A DNA stretch of 64,000 bases, taken from positions 3,176-67,175 of the forward strand of contig CALJVC010000081.1 in the NCBI GenBank assembly GCA_937974845.1, in the 5' to 3' direction. This stretch comes from an uncultured Pseudogracilibacillus sp. (GTDB lineage: Bacteria > Bacillota > Bacilli > Bacillales > Amphibacillaceae). Position numbers and translations under genes: made by a program. The notes under the pieces were generated by a model that saw nothing but the letters and a program-made list of their open reading frames with translations, was not told the origin of the DNA and ran no database searches. The stretch's first letter is position 1. Each line of letters begins with the position of its first letter. Of the stretch, positions 1,854 to 63,968 are shown piece by piece.

Positions 1854-1860
1854 AAGATTA

Positions 1861-1892
1861 CGGAAGCAAGCACTGACTTGCTTCCGTTTTTT
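1861..1892 (+). terminator. intrinsic terminator of ltaS
   Basis: 10-bp stem CGGAAGCAAG/CTTGCTTCCG, 6-nt loop, then TTTTTT, 8 nt after the stop codon. Confidence 0.85.
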
Positions 1893-1909: not shown

Positions 1910-2490
1910 TAGTATATGCCGGAAAGTTTTCTTATAAAAAAAGTCGGACTAGATACAAGGGTAAAGGTTCTTGTAAATAAATGTTCCTTCTAGATATAAG
2001 AGTAGGGGGCCTTGTAAATAAAATTTTCTTCTGTTTACATTGGCGGGCGCCCATATAAACAGTTTTTTATCCTATTTACACTAGAGCCCTCTACTGTAAA
2101 CAGAATATAGTTTTTAAAAATCCTATTTACAGTAGACGGGTTTACTGTATACAGAATAATTTTTTTAAAAATCCTGTATACAGTGGAAGCTTCTACTATA
2201 TACAAAAGATAGTCTCCATTTACAGTAGGAGGACTTGCTGTATACGAAAGTTTTATCTATATACAGTAGAGTAGTCCCTTATAAACGAAAAACTTAACGA
2301 TTTACAGTAAATCGATTCCTTGTATACGAAAGCTATTAATCATTTACAGTAGATTAGTTCCTTATATACAAAACTATGAACATTTACAGTAAAACAGCTA
2401 CTTATAAACAAAAATATTAACCCTTTACAATAGAGTAGCTCATTGTAAATAAAAAAACTCCCTATATACAGGAAGTTTTCCTCTGAATAA
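1910..2490. repeat. Array A: 14 tandem about 41-bp palindromic units (TGTAWACA half-sites), non-coding
   Basis: Left half-sites start at 1910, 1950, 1991, 2032, 2073, 2124, 2175, 2217, 2258, 2299, 2341, 2381, 2422 and 2463. Each has an inverted right half-site 21-22 bp downstream. No ORF of 60 aa or more. Confidence 0.9.
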
Positions 2491-2502: not shown

Positions 2503-2542
2503 TTTTAAAAATTAAACCCTCTAGTTGCTCCTTACTAGAGGG
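2503..2542 (-). terminator. intrinsic terminator of ilvA
   Basis: Minus strand reads CCCTCTAG-loop-CTAGAGGG followed by a TTTAATTTTT tail, 10 nt after the ilvA stop. Confidence 0.75.
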
Positions 2543-2551
2543 TATTGTTAT

Positions 2552-3567: not shown

Positions 3568-4158
3568 TTAGGCTAAATGGTTTGCTTCTTCGTAAGCTTT
3601 AATCTTATCCTCTAACTGTAACGTTAAATCAATCTCATCCCATCCGTTTAGTAAATTTTGTCGATTATATTCTGGAATGTCGAAATCTAAGGTCGTTCCT
3701 TGATGATCGGTAACAGTTTTTGCTTCTAAATCGATTGTTAACGTTAGCTCGTTTTCTTCCGCTTCTTTCATCCATTGATCTACTTGTTCTTTCGGCACTT
3801 CGATCACTAGTAAACCATTTTTTAATGAGTTATTATAAAATATGTCAGCAAAGCTAGGTGAAATAACGGCTTTAAACCCATAATCTAATAAAGACCAAGG
3901 GGCGTGTTCCCGCGAGGAACCGATTCCGAAGTTTTCCCCGGCGAGTAAAATAGACGCCTCTTTATATTTAGGTTGATGTAGACTAAAGTCTTCCCGTTTA
4001 TTACCGTTCTCGTCAAAGCGCCAGTTATAAAACAAGTTTTTACCAAAGCCAGTACGTTTAATACTTTTTAAAAATTGCTTCGGTATAATCTGGTCGGTAT
4101 CTACGTTCGTTCGATTTAACGGATAAACTAAGCCTGTATGTCTTTTAATTGGTTCCAT
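3568..4158 (-). CDS. leuD: 3-isopropylmalate dehydratase small subunit
   Basis: 196 aa with a typical LeuD sequence (GENFGIGSSREHAPW). Adjacent to leuC. Confidence 0.95.
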   Translation of the reverse strand: MEPIKRHTGLVYPLNRTNVDTDQIIPKQFLKSIKRTGFGKNLFYNWRFDENGNKREDFSLHQPKYKEASILLAGENFGIGSSREHAPWSLLDYGFKAVISPSFADIFYNNSLKNGLLVIEVPKEQVDQWMKEAEENELTLTIDLEAKTVTDHQGTTLDFDIPEYNRQNLLNGWDEIDLTLQLEDKIKAYEEANHLA

Positions 4159-10492: not shown

Positions 10493-10790
10493 AAAAAAAC
10501 TCTTTTCTCCACACGTCCAGCGACGGACTTTGGGGAGAAAAGAGTTACTTTCACGGTACCACCCAAATTTGTAGCATTCTCGCGAAGGCTACCTCATGAG
10601 ACTTTCCTTAAAGAAAGTCTACTTTGGTAACAGGTGCTTTTGGAACACCCGGCTAAGCCTACTGAGAGGGATCTCCGTTCGACAAAGCACTCAGGGATGA
10701 TGTCGGAATAAGATGTAATTTTAGGTTCTCACCAATCCCTAAATCTCTGTAATTACATGGAGCCTTATTCCTTTTTTCCCGTCATCGATT
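10493..10790 (-). promoter_or_regulatory. T-box leader (stem I, T-box sequence, terminator/antiterminator) upstream of ilvB
   Basis: Minus strand shows the K-turn GATGA...CTGA, AGAGA and GGTGAGA stem I motifs. The T-box sequence AAATTTGGGTGGTACCGTG lies at 10570..10552. The terminator AACTCTTTTCTCC/GGAGAAAAGAGTT is followed by seven T. Confidence 0.9.
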
Positions 10791-10808
10791 TATTGTTTCT
10801 AAATATAT

Positions 10809-14498: not shown

Positions 14499-14998
14499 AA
14501 TATATAAGAGCCCAGCCACTGTATATAGGATTTTTCGCCAGTTACAGTCGAGGCCATTCTTGTAAATGGAAACTTCTCCTGTTTACATTGAGGGGCTTAC
14601 CTTGTAAACGAATCTTTTTTCTGTATATAGGGAGGCTTGCCTTGTAAATAGAAATTTCTCCTGTTTACATGAGGGGCTTGCCTTGTAAACGAAAATTCCC
14701 CCTGTTTACATGAGAACCTTGCCTTGTAAACGAACCTTTTTTCTGTATACAGGGGAGCCGGCCACTGTATACAGGATTATTTTTTTCTAAAACCTGTATA
14801 CAGTAAAGGCTTCTACTGTATACGGAATAAAATTTTTTCCAAACCTAGATACAGTAATCATGTTCACCGTATACAGAATTCCTTCTCCATATACAAGAGA
14901 CTGGCCTACCGTAAACAAAAATAAATCCCATATACAGTAGAGCATTCTCTCGTATACCGTCCTCCCTTTCGTATACAAAAGGCTTGTCCTTCTAGCTA
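14499..14998. repeat. Array B: 12 tandem about 41-bp palindromic units of the same family as array A
   Basis: Left half-sites start at about 14499, then 14539, 14580, 14622, 14662, 14703, 14744, 14795, 14846, 14888, 14929 and 14970. Right half-sites follow 20-22 bp later. The only ORF is a repeat-generated 63-aa frame. Confidence 0.9.
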
Positions 14999-15016: not shown

Positions 15017-15048
15017 AAAAAAATGAAGCCCAAGGTTGGACTTCATTT
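15017..15048 (-). terminator. intrinsic terminator of the MCP gene
   Basis: Minus strand AAATGAAGTCC-loop-GGGCTTCATTT followed by a run of seven T, directly after the stop. Confidence 0.7.
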
Positions 15049-18813: not shown

Positions 18814-19242
18814 CTAGGCGCCGGCTAACTCCTGAAAGGAATAACACCACCAATTTCCTTCTTCCGAAAGTTGAAAGGCTTCGAGCTCTTCCGAGGCTTG
18901 TAAAGTGAAGGAAAAGGACCGAAAGAGGAGATCGGTGACAAGTTGCTTACTGTTGGCATAAAGTTTGTCCGCTCCTTTCTCCTTAGAAAACTGTAAAATA
19001 ACGTGTAACATTTCTGGTAGTTTCAAGGCCTCTTCCTGTAAAATGAACATTTTCTTCAACCAAAAGCAATGGGGTTGGAGCGGTTCTAGTTGAAACCAAC
19101 TAAGTACCCTACCTTCTTCTTCGACGACATAACTCATCCCCTGGGTAAACTGTACCTCATCCGTGCAAGCATCGTATTGGGATATAAAGGCATAAAAGCT
19201 ACTTTTATTGACATCGATGGCTCGTTTAATCTCCATCTTCAC
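18814..19242 (-). CDS. hypothetical protein (position of B. subtilis ywlA/ywlB)
   Basis: 142-aa ORF in operon orientation. I recognise no family motif with confidence. Confidence 0.5.
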   Translation of the reverse strand: MKMEIKRAIDVNKSSFYAFISQYDACTDEVQFTQGMSYVVEEEGRVLSWFQLEPLQPHCFWLKKMFILQEEALKLPEMLHVILQFSKEKGADKLYANSKQLVTDLLFRSFSFTLQASEELEAFQLSEEGNWWCYSFQELAGA

Positions 19243-30741: not shown

Positions 30742-33700
30742 TTACATATTCCGACGGTATTCTCCACCGACTTCGTATAAGGCAGCGGTAATTTGCCCGA
30801 GGCTTGCTACCTTAACGGTCTCCATTAGCTCTTCGAAAATATTTCCATTCGTTCTAGCAACTTGCTGGAGTCGTTTTAGGGCTTCATCTACCTTATCCTT
30901 GTTCTTCTCTTGGAACTCTCGTAAGTTTTTAATTTGTAACTCTTTCTCTTCGATTGTTGCCCGAGCTAACTCCATCGAATCGATTTCTTCGTCGGACGGT
31001 GGATTTGGATTTAAGTAAGTGTTCACACCAATAATCGGTAATTCACCCGAGTGCTTCTTGCTTTCATAGTAGAGGGATTCCTCTTGAATCTTACTACGCT
31101 GGTACTGACGCTCCATCGCTCCAAGGACTCCGCCCCGATCATTTAACCGTTCGAATTCCTGAAGGACGGCCTCCTCGACTAGGTCAGTTAATTCCTCGAC
31201 GATGAAAGAGCCTTGTAAGGAGTTTTCGTTTTTCGTTAAACCGAACTCCCGGTTAATAATTAATTGAATAGCCATCGCCCGGCGTACCGACTCCTCCGTT
31301 GGTGTCGTAATTGCTTCGTCATAAGCATTCGTATGGAGAGAGTTCGTATTGTCCTGAATCGCTAATAGAGCTTGTAAAGTCGTACGAATATCGTTGAAAT
31401 CAATTTCCTGGGCATGCAGGGATCGTCCAGAAGTTTGAATATGGTACTTTAACTTCTGGCTCCGTTCGCTTGCGCCGTAACGTTCCCTCATGACGATAGC
31501 CCAAATCCTTCTCGCAACCCGGCCGATTACTGTATATTCAGGATCTAAGCCGTTAGAGAAGAAGAAAGATAGGTTCGGTGCAAAATCATCGATATCCATG
31601 CCTCGACTTAAGTAATATTCCACATACGTAAAACCATTCGCCAAGGTAAAGGCAAGCTGCGTAATCGGGTTAGCTCCAGCCTCAGCAATATGATAACCAG
31701 AAATGGAGACGGAATAGTAGTTGCGTACATCGTTGTCGATAAAGTATTGCTGAATATCTCCCATCATACGCAAGGAAAACTCCGTCGAGAAAATACAAGT
31801 GTTCTGGCCTTGGTCTTCCTTTAAAATATCCGCCTGGACCGTTCCGCGAACAACCGATAGGGTCTCTTGTTTAATTTGTTCATATTCTTCCTCTGTCGGC
31901 TGACGCCCTTCCTTTTCGACAAACTTCTCTACCTGTTGGTCAATAGCCGTATTGAAGAAAAAGGCTAGCATAATCGGAGCCGGTCCGTTAATCGTCATCG
32001 ATACAGAAGTGTTTGGCGCCGTTAAATCAAAGCCCTTATACAACTTCTTCATATCTTCTAGAGTACAGATACTGACACCGCTTTCACCGATTTTACCATA
32101 AATGTCTGGACGGTAGTCGGGATCCTCCCCATACAAGGTGACAGAGTCAAAGGCCGTCGAAAGTCGCTTCGCCTCTTCATTCTCCGATAAGTAATGGAAA
32201 CGACGGTTCGTTCGCTCCGGAGTCCCTTCCCCAGCGAATTGACGGGTAGGGTCTTCACCCTGTCGCTTGAACGGGAACACTCCTGCTGTATAGGGGAATT
32301 GACCTGGTACGTTTTCCCGCATTAACCAGTAGACCCGGTCGCCCCAATCGGTATAATTCGGAAACTTAACTTTTGGAATTTTCGTGCCTGATAAAGAAGT
32401 CGTCGTAATATCAACCTTAATTTCTTTATCGCGTACCTTATAGGTCATCGTGTCACCGTTGTACTTTTCTTTTAGTTCATCCCATTTCTCTAACCATTCC
32501 TTCGTTTCTGGAAGAAGTTTCTTTTCATTCTCTTCTATTAAAGCTTCGATTGATTCACGAAGGGCATCGTCATCCTCCGGTAACTCTTCCTTCACCCCGT
32601 AAAGCTGATACAATTTTCGCGCAATATCGCGTTGTTTTTCCACCTTTTTATGATAGTTCCGGACCTCTTGGCTAATTTCCCGTAAGTAGTGGGTTCGATC
32701 GGATGGAATAATCGGATCCCGGTCCTCCGGTTCCTCATCGATTTCTAAGAGCATTTCTGGCTCATCCCAATGTCCATCGGTATTAATTTTATCGATAATA
32801 GCAGAGAAAAGACGGTTTACACCAGGATCGTTAAAACGACTTGCGCTCGTTCCAAAGATTGGGAAGCTTTCGGGATCTTCTCCGAACAACATTCGACTTC
32901 TTTCGTATTGTTTCCGTACCTGGGTTAAAGCATCGAGGGCTCCTTGTTGCTCAAACTTGTTAATGGCAATAAAGTCAGCGAAATCGATCATATCGATCTT
33001 TTCAAGCTGGGAAGGTGCCCCATACTCTGCTGTCATCACATACATGGATAGGTCAGTGATTTCTGTAATCTCTGCATCCCCTTGCCCAATACCACTCGTC
33101 TCCAAAATAATGAGGTCGAAGTTTGCAGCCCGCACGACGTCTAAGACTGGAATGGTCGCCTTCGATAACTCAGTTTTTGAGTCCCGGGTCGCTAAGGAGC
33201 GCATGAAAACCCTTTCAGAATTGAGCGCATTCATACGAATTCGATCTCCTAACAAGGCACCACCTGTTTTCCGCTTCGTCGGATCTACGGAAATAATCGC
33301 GATGCGCTTATCTGGGAAATGGTGTAAAAATCGTAGGACGAGTTCGTCGGTTAATGAACTTTTACCCGCTCCTCCCGTACCGGTAATACCTAAGACTGGG
33401 AGATTATTATTCTTTCTCTTTTGGAGCTCTTTCAGGATCCTTCGCTTTTCGTCCTCATTACCATCCCGCTCGACAAAGGTAATAAGACGGGCGATTGCCT
33501 TGTGATCCCCTTGGCTCAACTTTTCTATTTCTTCATCAGGATTACATGGAGGTTCGAAGTCTGCAATTTTCAATTTTTCATTAATCATCCCTTGTAGACC
33601 GAGCCGGCGTCCGTCTTCCGTAGAGAAAATCCAAGAAACGCCGTAATCGTGTAACTCTTTTATTTCACGCGGAATGATCGTCCCGCCGCCACCACCGAAA

Positions 33701-33990
33701 ACCTTTATATGGGAGGCGCCTTTTTCCTTTAAAAGATCGATCATATACTTATAATATTCAATATGCCCACCTTGATAGGAAGAAACTGAAATACCTTGTA
33801 CGTCTTCTTGAATAGCGGCATTTACTACTTCTTCAACACTACGATTATGGCCAAGGTGAATTACTTCTGCACCGCTCGACTGCAAAATACGACGCATAAT
33901 ATTGATCGCCGCATCATGGCCATCAAACAAACTCGACGCTGTTACAAAACGCACATGGTGTTTTGGACGATAAACTTCAATTTTCTTCAT
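30742..33990 (-). CDS. icmF: fused isobutyryl-CoA mutase (B12-binding domain, MeaB-like GTPase, mutase domain)
   Basis: 1082 aa. N-terminal DxHxxG-type B12 motif (FDGHDAAIN), P-loop GTGGAGKSS, and a C-terminal methylmalonyl-CoA-mutase-like barrel. Confidence 0.9.
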
Positions 33991-41830: not shown

Positions 41831-41910
41831 TGCTCTCCTCCTAAGATGATATTACTTTTAGTGTTGTCTCTTTCAGTCTATATCTTGGTTTAAATGGCTA
41901 TTCTATAAAA

Positions 41911-41926
41911 TGAATGAACATTCATT
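41911..41926. promoter_or_regulatory. candidate FadR(YsiA)-type operator upstream of ywjF
   Basis: Inverted repeat TGAATGAACATTCATT, 81-96 nt upstream of the ywjF start. It overlaps a plausible promoter spacer. It resembles the TGAATGA/TCATTCA-type boxes of the B. subtilis FadR regulon, which includes ywjF-acdA-rpoE. Confidence 0.5.
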
Positions 41927-42338
41927 TTCGACTTCTTTTCCTTCATAGATTCTACTAGATTTTTTTACCGTTTGCAAAGGAAAACGTTCTCTTTTTGTCG
42001 GAAAAAATCACTTTATATCCCTAGAACTCCTTCGCTATCCTAGGTTGAAAGATAAGGCCTGCCTCATTCCATATATAAGATAAGGACTAGTTTTGAAAGC
42101 GCTTGGACTTTCCTAGCGGGAAAACAAAGCTTCTCCGCTCGAAAACGAGGGGTTAAATTTCCTCTTACTCATATTCTTACATATTTACTTTTACTTTCCT
42201 AGCCAATTGTTTCTAAATAGATTCCTTTACACTGGCCAACACGTCATTCACTCTCTAGTAGATTAAGAAGGACAGTGCCTCAGGCCTCTATAGAAACCAA
42301 TCATTCTCCTTTCCTTTAACAAAATCTTTAGCTTTCCC

Positions 42339-42685
42339 TGTATCCAATCTCTAGACCTATTTACAGTAATTCGTTCCATTATAAATAGAAAATATTTTCG
42401 TTTACAAGAAAAGCATCTACTGTATATCCGCATAAATCCTATATACAGTAATCATGTTTACTGTATATAGAAGAAAACTTTTTTATATCCTGTATACAGT
42501 AAATGCCTCTACTGTAAATAGGTTTTTTAAAAAATCTATCCTGTATACAGTAAAATCGTCTACGGTATACAGGAATTATTCCTATTTACAAAAAAGCGTT
42601 ACACTGTATACAGAAAATATTTCTATATATAAGGAGCCAAGTCCATATATATAGAAAATTTTACCGTATACAAGATGCCTTTGCC
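42339..42685. repeat. Array C: 8 tandem about 41-bp palindromic units (plus one flanking half-site) of the same family as arrays A and B
   Basis: Left half-sites start at 42358, 42399, 42440, 42491, 42542, 42583, 42624 and 42665. Right half-sites follow 21-22 bp later. The only ORF is a repeat-generated 66-aa frame. Confidence 0.9.
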
Positions 42686-42701: not shown

Positions 42702-42734
42702 AAAAAAGTGTAGAAGGAGGAATTCCTTCTACAC
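42702..42734 (-). terminator. intrinsic terminator of argS (bidirectional shape)
   Basis: 11-bp stem GTGTAGAAGGA/TCCTTCTACAC flanked by A and T runs, 4 nt after the argS stop. Confidence 0.85.
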
Positions 42735-42737
42735 TTT

Positions 42738-44408
42738 TTACATTTTCTCCGGTGCAGAGACCCCGATAAGACGTAGACTATTTCCTAGGGTAATTTTTAC
42801 AGCCTTCATCAAGGCAATCCGGGCCTCTGTCAATGGTAGGTTCGCCTCATCGATAACCTTCTCCGCATTGTAAAAGCTGTGCAAGAAGCTGGCGAGGTCA
42901 AAAACATACTGGGTAATTCGATAAGGCGCCTCCCGCTCGGCCGCTTCCGCTACCACTTCTGGGAAGGAGGCGAGATGGCGTAGGAGGTCACGCTCCCGTT
43001 CAGTTGTCAGTAGGCTAGGATCGAAGGCTTCGCTAGTAGCCAATCCCTTGGCCTCTGCCTGCTTTAACATAGTACAAATTCGCGCATGGGCGTATTGAAC
43101 ATAGTACACCGGGTTTTCATTCGATTGCGAGCGGGCTAGATTCAGGTCAAAGTCTAATTGCGAATCGTTCGAACGCATGTTGAAAAAGTAACGCACCGCA
43201 TCGACACCTACATCTTCAACTAATTCCCGTAACGTAATCGCACTACCGGTCCGCTTGCTCATGCGTACAATTTCTCCGTCTTCTAAAACATTCACCATCT
43301 GAATGACGCTGACTGATAACTTTTCTTCTGGGTAGCCAAGGGCTTGGATCGCCGCAGAGATTCGCGGAATATAACCATGGTGGTCTGCACCCCAAACGTT
43401 AATAATTTTGTCAAAACCACGGGCTAACTTATTCTGGTGATAGGCAATATCCGGCGTTAAATAGGTGTAGGAGCCATCCTTCTTAATTAACACCCGATCC
43501 TTGTCATCGCCGAAAGCCGTCGACTTAAACCATGTCGCTCCGTCTTCTTCATAGACGTAGCCTCGTTCCTCTAGTTTCGCTAAAACTTGTTCAATCTGCC
43601 CGTCTTCATAAAGGGAAGATTCGGAAAACCATTGGTCAAATTCTACCCGGAAATCAGCTAAGATTTGTTTAATGCGCTCGAGCTGATAATTGAGGCCATA
43701 CTCACGAAAATAGGATAACCTCTCCGCTTCCCCTACTTCTAACCAACGGGAACCTTCCTTCTCTTTGATTTCCTCTGCAATAGCTTTAATATCTTCACCA
43801 TAATAGCCATCCTCAGGCATCGCCATCTCTTGGCCATGGGCTTCGTAATATCGAACTTCAATCGACTTGGCAAGTTGATCGATTTGGTTTCCAGCATCGT
43901 TAATATAATATTCCCGTTCCACATCATAACCAGAAAAGTCTAGGACATTGCTTAACACATCGCCAAAAACCGCTCCCCGAGCATGGCCTAAGTGGGGCTC
44001 TCCTGTCGGGTTCATGGACACGAACTCAACTTGGATTCGTTGACCCTTTCCACGATTCGTCCTTCCATAGTTCTCCTTTTCTTCTAGGATTGTTTCAACG
44101 ACGTCATTTAAATAGGCTTCATCCATAAAGAAATTAATAAAACCAGGTCCTGCAATATCTAGTTCTTTCACCTGGGCCTTGCTCGTATCAAGATGCTCGA
44201 CAATCTGCTCGGCAATTTGGCGCGGAGCCTGCCTAGCTACCCGGGCCAGTTGCATGGCAATGTTCGTTGCAAAATCTCCGTGGGCTTTTTCCCTTGGTTT
44301 TTCTAAAATAATTTCCGGTAACTCCGCTTCCGAACAAAGCTCCGCCTGCAAAATCGCCTGTTTAATCTCCGATTTTAATGTCTCTTCTATCGAACTTAAT
44401 AAGGTCAT
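42738..44408 (-). CDS. argS: arginine--tRNA ligase
   Basis: 556 aa class I synthetase with HIGH-type motif ([13 protein letters not shown]) and MSKRTG (KMSKS-like). Confidence 0.97.
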
Positions 44409-62076: not shown

Positions 62077-62251
62077 CTCTTATCAAGACGGATGGAGGGA
62101 ATGGGCCCAATGAAGTCCAGCAACCTGAAAGCATACGTCCATGCTTTTTCCGGTGCTAAATCCTACAGGTAGACTACCTGGAAGATAAGAGGAGGAATGA
62201 ATCGAGACGATATCAAACCTTCTTCTATCTTTTTTAGAAGAAGGTTTTTTT
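62077..62251 (+). promoter_or_regulatory. SAM-I (S-box) riboswitch with terminator
   Basis: CTCTTATCAAGA...GGAGGGA...GGCCC.ATGAAG...CAGCAACC...GGTGCTAAATCC...GAAGATAAGAG, followed by the terminator AACCTTCTTCT/AGAAGAAGGTT and a T run. Confidence 0.9.
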
Positions 62252-62339: not shown

Positions 62340-63968
62340 ATGGTTAATTTTCAGTTTCAAAAGGACGATACGATCTTAGTTCATGGAGGGCAGGAACCCG
62401 ATCCGGTAACTGGCTCACGGGCGGTACCGATTCATCAAACGACATCCTACGTTTTCCGAGATACAGACCATGCCCGTAACCTATTCGCCTTAACAGAGTC
62501 AGGAAACATTTATACCCGGATCATGAACCCGACGACCGACACCCTTGAACAGCGGGTTGCCTTATTAGAGGACGGTACAGCTGCCGTCGCCGTTTCTTCC
62601 GGAATGGCAGCTATTACGTACGCCATTTTAAACGTAGCCGGTGCCGGCGACGAAATCGTTACAGATAGTAATCTTTACGGTGGAACGTATAACTTATTTG
62701 TACATACCTTGCCTCGCTTCGGCATTAAGGTAAAGTTCGTCGATGGATCTAATCCCGAAAATTTCCGCACGGCCATTACCGATAAGACGAAGGCCATTTT
62801 TGGCGAGACGATTACGAACCCAAGCTTACATGTTTTTGATATTGAAAAAGTCGCTGCAATCGCCCATGAACACAATATCCCTTTAATTATCGACAACACC
62901 TTCGCGCCCTACTTTGCTAAACCTTTACAATGGGGAGCCGACGTCGTCGTCCATTCAGCTACGAAGTGGATCGGTGGACACGGTACGAGCATCGGTGGTG
63001 TCGTCGTCGACGGTGGACGCTTTAACTGGGATAATCCGAAGTTTCCAGGCTTTACAGAGCCAGACGAAAGCTATGGCGGGGTACGCTATGCCGATTTAGG
63101 TCCTGTAGCTTTTGCCGTCAAATTACGGGTACAATTATTACGAGATACCGGTGCAGCCCTAAGCCCACACAATGCTTTTTTACTGCTCCAAGGCTTAGAA
63201 ACCTTGCACCTACGAATCACCCGGCATAACGATAATGCCATTGAAGTAGCTAACTACTTAAATAATCATCCCGCCGTCGCCTGGGTAAACTTCCCTGGCT
63301 TAAAAGACCATCCATCCCACGAGCTCGCCCATAAGTACTTTAGCGAGGGCTATGGTTCTATCGTTACCTTTGGTATCAAGGGGGGCTACGAAGCAGGGAA
63401 AAACTTAATCGACACAATCGATCTCTGGTCGCACGTCGCCAACGTCGGGGACGCTAAGTCTTTAATCATTCACCCGGCATCCACGACCCACCAACAGCTA
63501 AGCCCAGAAGATTTAGCTAAAAGCGGGGTCACAGAGGATCTAATCCGTCTCTCCGTAGGTATCGAAAGTCTTGACGACATTATCGGTACATTAGATGAAG
63601 CGATTGGGAAAGTAACAAAAGTATATACCCGAGTCCAGGAAGAAACGGATGCTACGGATTGGTTAACGACTTCTCCTTTCGACCGTTCCGATGGTATACG
63701 ACGGAAAACAATCGTCGTGAAAGGCGATGAAAAACTATACGAAGAAGTCCGTAGCCTGACGAAAAAAGGCTATCACGTCCTACGAATCGAAGACCATGAC
63801 AAAGAAATTGTCGACTGCTTATTAACTAATGAAGCAATTACCGACCCATTTATACAGGACGTTCAAGCCATCGAACCTAAAATTATTTGGACGACAGACC
63901 GTGTAGATACGACAGATGCTTCAATTGTGACGATTGCTGAGAAGGACTTTTTAGGTTACTTCATTTAA
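62340..63968 (+). CDS. metY: O-acetylhomoserine sulfhydrylase (aminocarboxypropyltransferase) with a C-terminal extension of about 115 aa
   Basis: Cys/Met PLP family with the PLP lysine in [11 protein letters not shown]. The canonical end ([25 protein letters not shown]) is followed by an extra domain of about 115 aa. Confidence 0.9.

Follow-up and report, generated by a model that had tools for sequence, protein, structure and literature searches.

An undescribed family of interspersed, non-coding tandem arrays is present in a small clade of uncultured Bacillaceae. In the window, i.e. the whole 64-kb stretch of DNA analysed, which derives from an uncultured spore-forming member of the Bacillaceae near Pseudogracilibacillus, three such arrays (1910-2490, 14499-14998 and 42339-42685) together comprise ~34 units repeated in tandem every 41 or 51 bp, and ~2% of the window is array DNA. 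We tentatively read the family as an interspersed, BIME-like repeat whose half-sites serve as duplex recognition sites for a putative dimeric protein, and which moves from one post-gene intergenic site to another and grows in place through unequal exchange; we hold this to be possible, somewhat short of probable, and the function of the palindromic arrays is unproven. The arrays and their neighbouring terminators are laid out as follows.

Array A, 1910..2490, unstranded: 14 tandem units between convergent ltaS and ilvA
Array A left part, 1910-2068: degenerate 41-bp units with G+C-rich centres
Array A core, 2069..2212, unstranded: three well-kept units, left half-sites at 2073, 2124 and 2175
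Array A right part, 2213-2490: degenerate 41-bp units of the 'ATTTACAGTAG...TCCTTATAAAC' type
Array B, 14499..14998, unstranded: 12 units, oriented as array A, between the terminator of a methyl-accepting chemotaxis protein (MCP) gene and the rpiB promoter region
Array B core, 14740..14887, unstranded: well-kept units at 14744, 14795 and 14846
Array C, 42339..42685, unstranded: 8-9 units in the opposite orientation to A and B, inserted after the argS terminator and before a conserved ywjF-like promoter
Array C core, 42436..42578, unstranded: well-kept units at 42440, 42491 and 42542
ltaS intrinsic terminator, 1860..1887, + strand: 22 bp before array A
ilvA intrinsic terminator, 2516..2543, - strand: 25 bp after array A
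MCP-gene terminator-like hairpin and T-run, 15017..15046, - strand: separated from array B's right edge by ~20 bp, read in the sequence
argS bidirectional terminator, 42703..42739, - strand: ~18 bp from the edge of array C

The 14 left half-site starts originally reported for array A were reproduced, together with their step series (40, 41, 41, 41, 51, 51, 42, 41, 41, 42, 40, 41 and 41 bp). The strict 41-bp period of the original prediction holds as periodicity, given the lag-41 autocorrelation peak, but not as a single period, since two to three central 51-bp units have 41-bp units on both sides. The 41-bp signal extends to all three arrays, with identity autocorrelation reaching its maximum at lag 41 in A, B and C (0.441, 0.440 and 0.434; means 0.27-0.29, sd ~0.04), against 0.313 at most in a coding control region. 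For 1949-2455, the periods given by Tandem Repeats Finder were 41, 40 and 51, and the program called further arrays at 14559-14751 and 42531-42572. Likewise, the '28 phased TGTAWACA half-sites' first described are phased, but the octamer was generous, array A containing four exact copies and 1-4 mismatches in the rest; the window has 26 occurrences versus 2.3 expected, 22 of them within the three arrays. A unit HMM run over the 64 kb bore out the proposed three-array family of ~34 units, all E<0.1 matches falling inside the arrays, with nothing credible outside and neither solitary nor doublet units, and over ~77 kb of host genome the count is again ~34 units, all in the three arrays and none solitary. 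Three independent assemblies, matching the window at 99.75-99.9% identity, contain array A at an unchanged length, and the arrays are no assembly artefacts. The window species also occurs in the ENA assemblies ERZ794975 and ERZ794980.

Each unit comprises two inverted ~13-bp half-sites, T-r-T-W-TACAGTA-r and its complement, of which the loop-proximal TACAGTA/TACTGTA, not the full octamer, is the best-conserved core. Between the half-sites lies a spacer of free sequence and exactly 6 bp, a length invariant in all well-kept units aligned (window plus four relatives' loci), and a variable, A/T-rich linker completes the period to 51 or 41 bp. Half-site orientation switches every 19/22 bp or 22/29 bp, giving tandem clusters, and the variable parts of the unit, namely the 6-bp centres and the 9-21-bp linkers, both recur between units. 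Furthermore, the two arms differ consistently (TGTATAC versus TGTAAAC), and GTAG/CTAC tetranucleotides are common, flanking the 6-bp spacer at the loop-proximal top of the palindrome, not at its 5' foot. The core of array A is made of two units of 51 bp and one of 42 bp, with the consensus ATCCTrTWTACAGTAG-N6-yTACTGTAWACAGAAT followed by an A/T-tract linker; these units reach unit-HMM E values of 7e-11 to 2e-08 and have their closest matches in the other arrays. Unit quality falls from centre to edges in each array, the first three units of array A are very degenerate, most window units are decayed, and the left part of array B shows a higher-order period of 82 bp, equal to two units. Because 51 bp is the sole period seen in relatives for the palindromic-unit family, it is taken as the canonical unit length, and the 41-bp units are a decayed variant with a shorter linker.

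The three arrays are also related to one another as wholes. A, B and reverse-complemented C are colinear over ~375 columns (about nine units), linkers and spacers included, with local alignment scores of 96 versus 55 (A-B, forward), 97 versus 79 (A-C, reverse) and 95 versus 58 (B-C, reverse). The central 51-bp units are closest to units of other arrays (2124/42491, 35/40; 14846/42440, 33/40; 2175/14795, 32/40), and the peripheral 41-bp units find their closest match in their own array. This colinearity makes the three arrays paralogues, copied from one composite block of several units to different intergenic sites, with C inverted, and after arrival they changed locally by tandem duplication and decay. 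The colinearity could also stem from ectopic gene conversion, not from block movement. With regard to a MITE, which would be a single 100-400-bp element flanked by terminal inverted repeats and a target-site duplication, A and reverse-complemented C have GAAGGGTC in common at their left edges; clean ends or duplications could not be delimited, since no closely related empty site can be aligned.

All nine arrays seen in the window and in relatives are intergenic, and those in the window have housekeeping neighbours in B. subtilis-like synteny. The predicted terminators on both sides of array A were found at 1860-1887 and 2516-2543, and the MCP-gene hairpin at 15017-15046 has an RNA fold of -19.2 kcal/mol (z -5.3) and is not called by a simple terminator scan. 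The ltaS-ilvA gap indeed lacks a credible ORF, containing only ORFs of 40 and 56 aa, which the 41-bp units break, and a coding repeat is thus rejected, as first proposed. Among the window proteins scanned or annotated with Pfam there are no cas, transposase or recombinase genes; this and the lack of unique spacers confirm that the repeat is not a CRISPR. No transposase, recombinase or orphan DNA-binding gene was found adjoining any array, no integrase, par, rep or SMC-accessory gene lies near the arrays, and no Y1_Tnp/RAYT gene was found among the Pfam-scanned or annotated proteins of ~77 kb of host genome or in any fetched locus.

In agreement with the earlier failure to name a matching repeat family, searches of Rfam, of plasmid and phage collections and of full text for the motif gave no match. 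Rfam returned nothing credible for the repeat, with no array match at gathering threshold and only chance-level scores of 18-27 bits at E<=1 (gathering 54-100); blastn found no match in 72,556 plasmids or in the phage collection; and full-text searches on motif strings, 41-bp palindromic tandem intergenic repeats and Pseudogracilibacillus found no description of the repeat family. The palindromic-unit family is new to Rfam, to these collections and to the literature searched. A plasmid or phage origin was rejected on the blastn results and the housekeeping neighbours, a pattern scan of viral contigs having given two stretches, one of which (L021) is a single site in apparent coding sequence. 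An RNA gene or riboswitch was set aside in view of the Rfam result and the absence of tRNA and tmRNA genes, a promoter array because A, B and C show no excess of promoter-like sites, internal terminators because the scan calls none inside A or B, and a restriction-site decoy because GTATAC is not avoided outside the arrays (13 observed versus 12.8 expected). An operator for the flanking genes was discarded since the adjoining housekeeping genes are unrelated and relatives show no conservation of array position. By eye, what we take to be the E. coli LexA box (CTGT-N8-ACAG), the BirA operator (TGTAAAC-N15-GTTTACA) and the WalR repeat (TGTWAH-N5-TGTWAH) are unlike the unit in spacing or orientation; in what is presumably the B. 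subtilis GntR operator, TTGTATACAA, the octamer TGTATACA fits the unit, and the outer half of each arm is less conserved. A serine recombinase lead in Bacillus sp. RC (L018) consisted of one palindrome matching the search pattern and was dropped, about one chance match being estimated by our own reckoning (~40 bits over the collection, with a higher chance in A/T-rich DNA).

At least four other uncultured relatives carry the palindromic-unit family at unrelated loci, with units of 51 bp. In a metagenome-assembled genome of an uncultured Pseudogracilibacillus, 51-bp-period arrays lie at L008 and L013; two further metagenome organisms carry arrays (L031/L032 and L047), L047 having two with identical spacers 5.3 kb apart; and L051, a relative with 83% ArgS identity, has an array at 3764-4043 of its sequence, in the pta/lplA gap. 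The half-site sequence is kept among relatives whose intergenic DNA is otherwise unalignable. The argS-ywjF gap, where array C lies in the window, contains no array in L051, L052, L053, L058, L059 or L060, while the promoter and FadR-box downstream of it are conserved in the window, L051, L052 and L053; by this comparison of sequences, array C appears to be a lineage-specific insertion. P. auburnensis (GCA_017355195.1) and the organisms of L052, L053 and L060-L062 are counted as relatives free of the palindromic arrays. By B. subtilis synteny, the window corresponds to the ywl-rho-pyrG-argS region and L031 to the murC-ytxH-aroA-ccpA region. Copy number is unchanged in near-identical strains of the window species, and between L031 and L032, one locus in two samples, the order of unit variants differs at equal copy number. 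As in tandem minisatellites, units lie at several intergenic loci and variants differ between strains. In addition, sister species carry unrelated non-coding arrays, of 41 bp x 9.8 copies in L058 and 51 bp x 8.1 copies in L052. Contigs of several relatives end inside arrays, where short-read assemblies are broken.

What is conserved in the half-sites is their sequence and not a hairpin structure. With the 34 window units in register, information amounts to 0.70-1.01 bits/column in the arms, 0.32 in the spacer and 0.2-0.43 in the flanks, and the majority fraction across array consensuses is 0.80-0.83 in the arms and 0.48 in the spacer. Since both the pattern and the HMM used to find relatives' arrays depend on conserved arms, arm conservation across lineages is partly ascertainment, and the comparison free of this bias is that of units within the window; arm conservation could also come partly from recent duplication and gene conversion instead of selection. 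At the level of pairing, stem cells pair in 77.6% of cases versus 79.1% in shuffles, i.e. with no excess of compensatory changes, and covariation was rejected; pair 12-35 is mismatched in 28 of 36 distinct units. Folded as single-stranded DNA, the units yield hairpins of just -0.9 to -7.9 kcal/mol; out of eight units, four are no different from shuffles, the well-homogenised L047 unit (z -0.4) included.

Conservation of sequence at fixed spacing, the lack of compensatory changes and the poor hairpin potential together point to duplex recognition, and a putative dimeric, sequence-specific protein would thus read the half-sites as duplex DNA. By analogy with TnpA-REP and the BIME-2 clusters of E. 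coli, such a protein would probably spread or maintain the arrays, and the effect on the host is probably small, amounting at most to protein-coated spacers beyond gene 3' ends. Against a duplex-reading protein stand the absence of a candidate gene adjoining any array and the distance of 17 bp between half-site cores, which is unusual for simple helix-turn-helix (HTH) repressors; against BIME-like behaviour stands the absence of solitary units in the 64 kb, unlike REP families.

Several other explanations have to be weighed against this BIME-like, protein-bound repeat. The arrays might be a neutral minisatellite, in which replication slippage or unequal crossing-over multiplied a palindrome lying past gene ends and occasional ectopic recombination carried it to other loci, with no dedicated protein and no function. 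The decay of units from centre to edges, the 82-bp higher-order repeat in array B, the differing variant order of L031 and L032 at the same copy number, the unrelated tandem arrays of sister species (L052, L058) and the lack of an associated gene all fit such an origin; we nevertheless think it unlikely, as arms are more conserved than spacers and linkers both within arrays and between lineages, the 6-bp spacer is invariant in the well-kept units aligned from the window and four relatives' loci, and half-site sequence is kept where intergenic DNA otherwise cannot be aligned. A true REP/RAYT element, whose single-stranded hairpin is read by a domesticated Y1 (HUH) RAYT-type transposase that cleaves and rejoins units during replication, is more doubtful still: the hairpins are A/T-rich and weak, several being no better than shuffles, covariation is absent, GTAG sits at the loop-proximal top instead of the 5' foot, no solitary or doublet copies occur in 64 kb, no Y1_Tnp gene was seen in ~77 kb of host genome or the fetched loci, and the REP hosts in the part of the RAYT table considered are Proteobacteria (PMC2817692). 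Such an element would nonetheless account for the extragenic position beyond gene 3' ends, the alternation of inverted elements in clusters, the BIME-2-like homogeneity within and variability between loci, the stem mismatch conserved in 28/36 units and the GTAG/CTAC flanking the spacer, mismatch and GTAG both being needed by TnpA-REP (PMC3333891).

Host benefit is conceivable if the arrays load or nucleate a nucleoid-associated, partition-like or SMC-related protein, comparable with sopC or parC, given the many phased sites (half-sites every 19/22 bp or 22/29 bp), the period classes 10 bp, or about one helical turn, apart, the fixed spacing with sequence-level conservation, and the 41- and 51-bp periods shared with the sister species' unrelated arrays. 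We consider this improbable, because array positions are not conserved between close relatives, decay affects most window units, the neighbourhood contains no par, rep or SMC-accessory gene, and B. subtilis synteny places the contexts in different parts of the chromosome. An equally improbable variant on the theme of period is that satellite-like arrays of the Pseudogracilibacillus group are restricted to periods of 41 or 51 bp, equal to 4 or 5 turns of the helix at ~10.2 bp each, even as their sequences are replaced from species to species; it is based on the periods common to the TGTATACA family and the unrelated L058/L052 arrays. Very unlikely, in our estimation, is an element acting at the RNA level, in which read-through transcripts would act as insulators or reserve terminators, stabilise RNA through hairpins or give rise to small RNAs. 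The arrays lie directly beyond intrinsic terminators, whole-array RNA folds better than shuffles (z -3.6) and linkers of 51-bp units contain T-runs, but a position outside terminators implies that the arrays are mostly untranscribed, the terminator scan calls none inside array A, no covariation is seen, predicted pairings are ambiguous between neighbouring units, and there are no Rfam match, no unique spacers and no cas genes. We give just as little credence to core sites of a tyrosine recombinase (Xer/lox-like), with 12-13-bp inverted arms, a 6-bp overlap and size change by site-specific unequal exchange, even though the geometry is 13 + 6 + 13 bp, the spacer is fixed in length, free in sequence and homogeneous within relatives' arrays, and the arms differ consistently (TGTATAC versus TGTAAAC). 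Likeness to B. subtilis dif (sequence from PMC3025954) is not significant, with 8/11 for the XerD arm (P = 0.14 versus shuffles) and P = 0.94 for the whole dif, and a dif/Xer identity of the unit was rejected; moreover, neighbouring sites are too close to recombine together, no integrase gene is near any array, and the L047 arrays with identical spacers 5.3 kb apart ought to be unstable.

Interspersed palindromic repeat clusters, namely REP, BIME and REPIN elements with their RAYT transposases, are well studied in Proteobacteria and, to our knowledge, poorly documented in Bacillota, and the palindromic-unit arrays provide a clean case in spore-forming Bacillaceae, one that is convenient to study since they take up ~2% of the window. 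As the half-sites are conserved as sequence at fixed spacing, a specific and findable binding protein is predicted, whose identification would tell whether dynamics of the BIME type can arise with no HUH enzyme to read hairpins. Should the period constraint be true, conserved array-reading or array-making machinery would be expected, e.g. a DNA-wrapping or filament-forming protein or a dedicated recombinase, with which binding sites would co-evolve as in a bacterial counterpart of centromeric satellites; if the shared 41/51-bp periods are no coincidence, they would point to a structural constraint on bacterial tandem DNA. The arrays could additionally serve as strain-typing (VNTR) loci.

Among known systems, CRISPRs share regularly spaced, partly palindromic, non-coding repeats, but here the whole 41/51-bp unit repeats, without unique spacers of ~25-70 bp, cas genes or a leader. 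Plasmid centromere or iteron arrays are exemplified by R1 parC and by F sopC, in which the 12 x 43 bp units all contain an inverted repeat; the present arrays share ~40-bp tandem units, inverted repeats of a (here putative) dimer-binding type and regular phasing, and differ in being chromosomal, several per 64 kb, free of adjoining par/rep genes and not conserved in position. MIRU-VNTR and S. aureus STAR elements have 40-100-bp units in tandem at many intergenic loci, are minisatellite-like and have no known mobilising gene, in all of which the present arrays resemble them; MIRUs lie inside operons, with small overlapping ORFs, and STAR elements are G+C-rich direct repeats, and the phased palindrome of inverted half-sites is found only in the arrays described here. 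In REPINs, ~70 bp separate the arms, which are rich in G+C and fold into a long stable hairpin. The REPINs of Pseudomonas fluorescens (PMC3116915) likewise have paired inverted short repeats as a mobile unit, with clusters and tandem arrangements; our units have arms separated by 6 bp and a weak hairpin, and occur only as arrays.

The palindromic arrays most resemble the REP/BIME clusters of enteric bacteria. REP elements exceed 100 copies in a genome, some of them solitary, and their cognate RAYT gene often has REPs on its flanks; the ~77 kb of host genome covered here contain ~34 units, all within the three arrays. BIME-2 elements form tandem copies whose linkers are variable between and homogeneous within loci, and their transposase requires the stem mismatch and GTAG (PMC3333891); the RAYT paper never mentions Firmicutes or Bacillus (PMC2817692). 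Unlike REP/BIME-2, the arrays belong to Bacillota, are A/T-rich with weak hairpins, have half-sites that are not themselves hairpins, carry GTAG in a loop-proximal position instead of at the 5' foot, lack solitary or doublet copies in 64 kb and a RAYT gene in ~77 kb of host genome and the fetched loci, and contain multi-unit blocks colinear between loci; nor do their units form the stable, usually G+C-rich, 20-40-nt imperfect-palindrome stem-loop of REPs or place GTAG/GTGG 5' of a hairpin foot. In common with REP/BIME-2 of E. coli and other Proteobacteria (PMC3333891, PMC2817692), however, they are extragenic, usually beyond gene 3' ends, and consist of short inverted elements in regular spacing, alternating orientation and tandem copies, with linkers homogeneous within a locus and varying between loci, a conserved stem mismatch, a GTAG/CTAC tetranucleotide and probably many loci per genome.

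The three tandem arrays of the window are a real feature, and the housekeeping genes beside them are unrelated from one array to the next:

1910-2490: array A, between converging ltaS and ilvA; well-kept units at 2073, 2124 and 2175
14499-14998: array B, bounded by the terminator of a gene for a methyl-accepting chemotaxis protein (MCP) and by the rpiB promoter; well-kept units at 14744, 14795 and 14846
42339-42685: array C, bounded by the argS terminator and by the promoter of a gene for a ywjF-like Fe-S oxidoreductase; well-kept units at 42440, 42491 and 42542

The half-site coordinates and steps originally predicted for array A were reproduced, and the claim that no credible ORF lies in the gap between the terminators (here called as intrinsic terminators at 1860-1887 and 2516-2543) stands, the longest ORF in 1910-2490 being 56 aa. 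Formal periodicity analysis bears out the 41-bp signal: lag 41 is the maximum of identity autocorrelation in all three arrays (0.44 vs means of 0.27-0.29, sd ~0.04), with no peak at this lag in a coding control region, and Tandem Repeats Finder gives periods of 40, 41 and 51 bp for array A and also reports ~14559-14751 and ~42531-42572. The proposed half-site TGTAWACA is indeed enriched (26 occurrences in the window vs 2.3 expected by chance, 22 of them inside the arrays), but only four sites in array A match it exactly. All matches to a profile HMM of the unit with E<0.1 in the 64-kb window fall in the three arrays, with no solitary units outside them, and the same profile has no hit in the adjoining sequence, 10 kb on the right and 3 kb on the left. 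In three independent assemblies, which share 99.75-99.9% identity with the window, array A is equally long, so it is no assembly artefact.

Gene order and content of the window track the Bacillus subtilis ywl-prfA-rho-glpX-murA-fbaA-pyrG-rpoE...argS region, spoIIR included, and ArgS identity reaches at most 69% to named species (top, Pseudogracilibacillus auburnensis) and 72-83% to metagenome relatives; this places the host among the uncultured, spore-forming Bacillaceae. Other features of the window are:

10528-10794 (-): T-box leader upstream of ilvB (83.5 bits, E = 1.6e-18), missed by the default Rfam scan because its score is below the gathering score of 93
18814-19242 (-): 142-aa ORF flanked by spoIIR and the Sua5/TsaC gene; Pfam gives nothing at E<=1e-5
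30742-33990 (-): 1082-aa IcmF-like fused protein (B12-binding, MeaB GTPase and methylmalonyl-CoA-mutase domains), its gene adjoining a TetR regulator and an acyl-CoA dehydrogenase/thiolase cluster
41910-41925: perfect palindrome ATGAATGAACATTCAT in the promoter region of the ywjF-like gene, with promoter-like hexamers at 41977-41949 (-); we take it to resemble a FadR/YsiA box
42000-42338: non-coding stretch of ~300 bp that separates array C from the conserved ywjF promoter, without counterpart in the shorter argS-ywjF gaps of relatives
62077-62191 (+): SAM riboswitch (76.8 bits) upstream of a gene for a 542-aa Cys/Met-metabolism PLP enzyme (62340-63968)

In register, a well-kept unit reads aATCC-TGTATACAGTAG-N6-CTACTGTATACA-GgAT plus an A/T-tract linker, with the strongest conservation proximal to the loop (T.TACAG in the left arm, CTGTA.A in the right) and a centre that is invariably 6 bp wherever well-kept units were aligned (window plus four relatives' loci). 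Two or three such units, two of them 51 bp long, occupy the middle of each array, with degenerate 41-bp units on either side that fall into two recognisable subtypes; in the left part of array B (14559-14730), an 82-bp two-unit higher-order period outscores the 41-bp period (82% vs 74% matches). The 56-aa ORF (2035-2205, -) carries a 17-residue internal repeat. It owes its existence solely to 51 being divisible by 3, is interrupted by 41-bp units, and has no conserved equivalent in array B or C.

The original description of array A as a repeat that is neither CRISPR nor coding and matches no named Firmicute repeat family is supported. A CRISPR was rejected, there being no unique spacers and no cas genes among the window's Pfam-examined proteins, as were a promoter array, promoter-like sites not being enriched, and internal terminators, none being called inside arrays A or B. 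Plasmid or phage DNA was rejected because 72,556 plasmids and 50,697 phages yielded no blastn match; of two stretches from a pattern scan of viral contigs, the one read (L021) is a single site within an apparent coding sequence. Outside the arrays GTATAC shows no avoidance, hence no link to restriction-modification, and a full-text literature search with motif strings and descriptive terms returned no description of the repeat family.

Outside the window the family always occurs as arrays. Relatives were sought with an exact pattern of the canonical palindrome, matched at four places in the window. Among 185,579 species genomes, true arrays were found only in an uncultured Pseudogracilibacillus metagenome assembly (loci L008 and L013, period 51), the remaining 11 stretches being single sites; the window's own species is unmatched in this species-representative scan despite its four pattern sites and is probably outside that collection. 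Metagenome contigs yielded one locus present in two samples (L031 and L032, nine 51-bp units) and a contig with arrays at both ends (L047), and the closest ArgS relative (L051, 83% identity) has an array of period 51 in its pta/lplA gap, found independently of the pattern. The genes flanking these arrays are again unrelated to one another, and L008 and L047 terminate within arrays, as expected because multi-copy repeats break short-read assemblies. In Bacillus sp. RC, a lone near-perfect 30-bp palindrome that fits the pattern (TATATACAGTAATTTGAATTACTGTATACA, L018 6124-6153) sits in the gap between divergent genes, upstream of a 274-aa ORF with an N-terminus that appears serine recombinase-like by eye; it is probably an operator or recombination site with no relation to the family.

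With C reverse-complemented, the three window arrays give a colinear alignment of ~375 columns (~nine units), linkers and 6-bp centres included, and local alignment scores are better forward for A-B (96 vs 55) and better reversed for A-C and B-C (97 vs 79; 95 vs 58). Central units are most similar to units of another array (35/40, 33/40, 32/40), peripheral 41-bp units to others of their own array. This makes the arrays paralogous copies of a composite block, later remodelled by local duplication and decay. The argS-ywjF gap that houses array C is free of arrays in L051, L052 and L053, and the same gene pair in L058 (P. auburnensis), L059 and L060 has none either, which marks array C as a lineage-specific insertion. 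The downstream promoter and the FadR-box-like palindrome are conserved in the window and the first three of these relatives, where the ATGAATGAACATTCAT region and the ywjF promoter align with small differences. Further signs of local turnover are the 82-bp higher-order repeat of array B and the order of unit variants, which differs between L031 (7519-7980) and L032 (521-984), although their flanks align and identity is 98.2% over a 1,306-bp alignment, array included; this difference could be real recombination or an artefact, tandem repeats being error-prone in short-read assembly. The L031/L032 array is bracketed by ~33-bp imperfect direct repeats. These comparisons show an interspersed non-coding family whose blocks have spread to different intergenic sites, usually beyond the 3' end of a gene, and whose arrays expand and decay locally.

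The arms are conserved as sequence rather than as a hairpin. Across 36 distinct units (window and four relatives' loci; 16-bp stem), paired stem cells make up 77.6% vs 79.1% in column shuffles, without excess compensatory changes over these shuffles, and pair 12-35 is mismatched in 28/36 units because the arms differ (GTATAC vs GTAAAC). As ssDNA the units fold weakly (-0.9 to -7.9 kcal/mol), four of eight tested fold no better than shuffles, the well-homogenised L047 unit among them, and in whole-array folds neighbouring units pair as readily as arms within one unit. Among the 34 window units, compared by register alone and hence free of ascertainment through the arms, information per column is 0.70-1.01 bits in the arms, 0.32 in the centre and 0.2-0.43 in the flanks; across lineages, array consensuses give a conserved fraction of 0.80-0.83 for the arms and 0.48 for the centre, a difference partly due to ascertainment, the arms having been the means of finding relatives. 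Since the half-sites are inverted, fixed in spacing and conserved regardless of pairing, we tentatively favour their recognition on duplex DNA by a dimeric protein, which, by analogy with TnpA-REP and BIME-2, may spread and homogenise the arrays.

A candidate for such a protein was not found among the sequences examined, as a neutral minisatellite without a dedicated protein would have it; set beside the arm conservation within the window, that explanation is possible but unlikely. The palindromic unit also recalls a true hairpin-reading REP/RAYT system, rather improbable alongside the weak folds, and its half-sites could form a binding platform that benefits the host, a doubtful proposal alongside an argS-ywjF gap that is array-free in relatives. 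An RNA-level role is very unlikely: against Rfam the arrays give nothing at the gathering threshold and chance-level matches at E<=1, and there are no tRNA genes, on which grounds an RNA family was rejected. Arms inverted around a short centre might suggest arrays of tyrosine-recombinase sites, an equally unlikely reading; similarity of the unit to Bacillus subtilis dif is not significant.

Two arrays in sister species are unrelated in sequence to the window family and have exactly its two periods, both beyond gene 3' ends: P. auburnensis GCA_017355195.1 (L058 6750-7148) has a non-coding array of 41 bp x 9.8 copies (89% match), its unit made of two ~20-bp direct sub-repeats, and L052 (14327-14743) a G+C-rich non-coding one of 51 bp x 8.1 copies (88% match). 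The chance of such a coincidence is <1% by a rough, post hoc estimate, and it may hint at a constraint on period, 41 and 51 bp being 4 and 5 helical turns of ~10.2 bp, two cases being too few to conclude.

Among known systems, BIME-2/REPIN clusters are closest in how they work, and BIME-2 tandem copies are alike within a locus and variable between loci (PMC3333891). REP elements are defined by a stable G+C-rich hairpin, GTAG at the 5' foot, solitary copies and a RAYT gene, whereas the arrays here lack the hairpin and have no GTAG at that position, and neither solitary copies in the 64-kb window nor a RAYT gene was seen; TnpA-REP requires a stem mismatch and the GTAG tetranucleotide on BIME-2 (PMC3333891), and REP hosts listed in part of the RAYT table are Proteobacteria (PMC2817692). 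Plasmid centromere arrays such as sopC have a similar geometry, but their gene context is absent here, and in population structure the arrays resemble the interspersed minisatellites MIRU and STAR. The arrays are an interspersed palindromic tandem repeat, a known kind of element.
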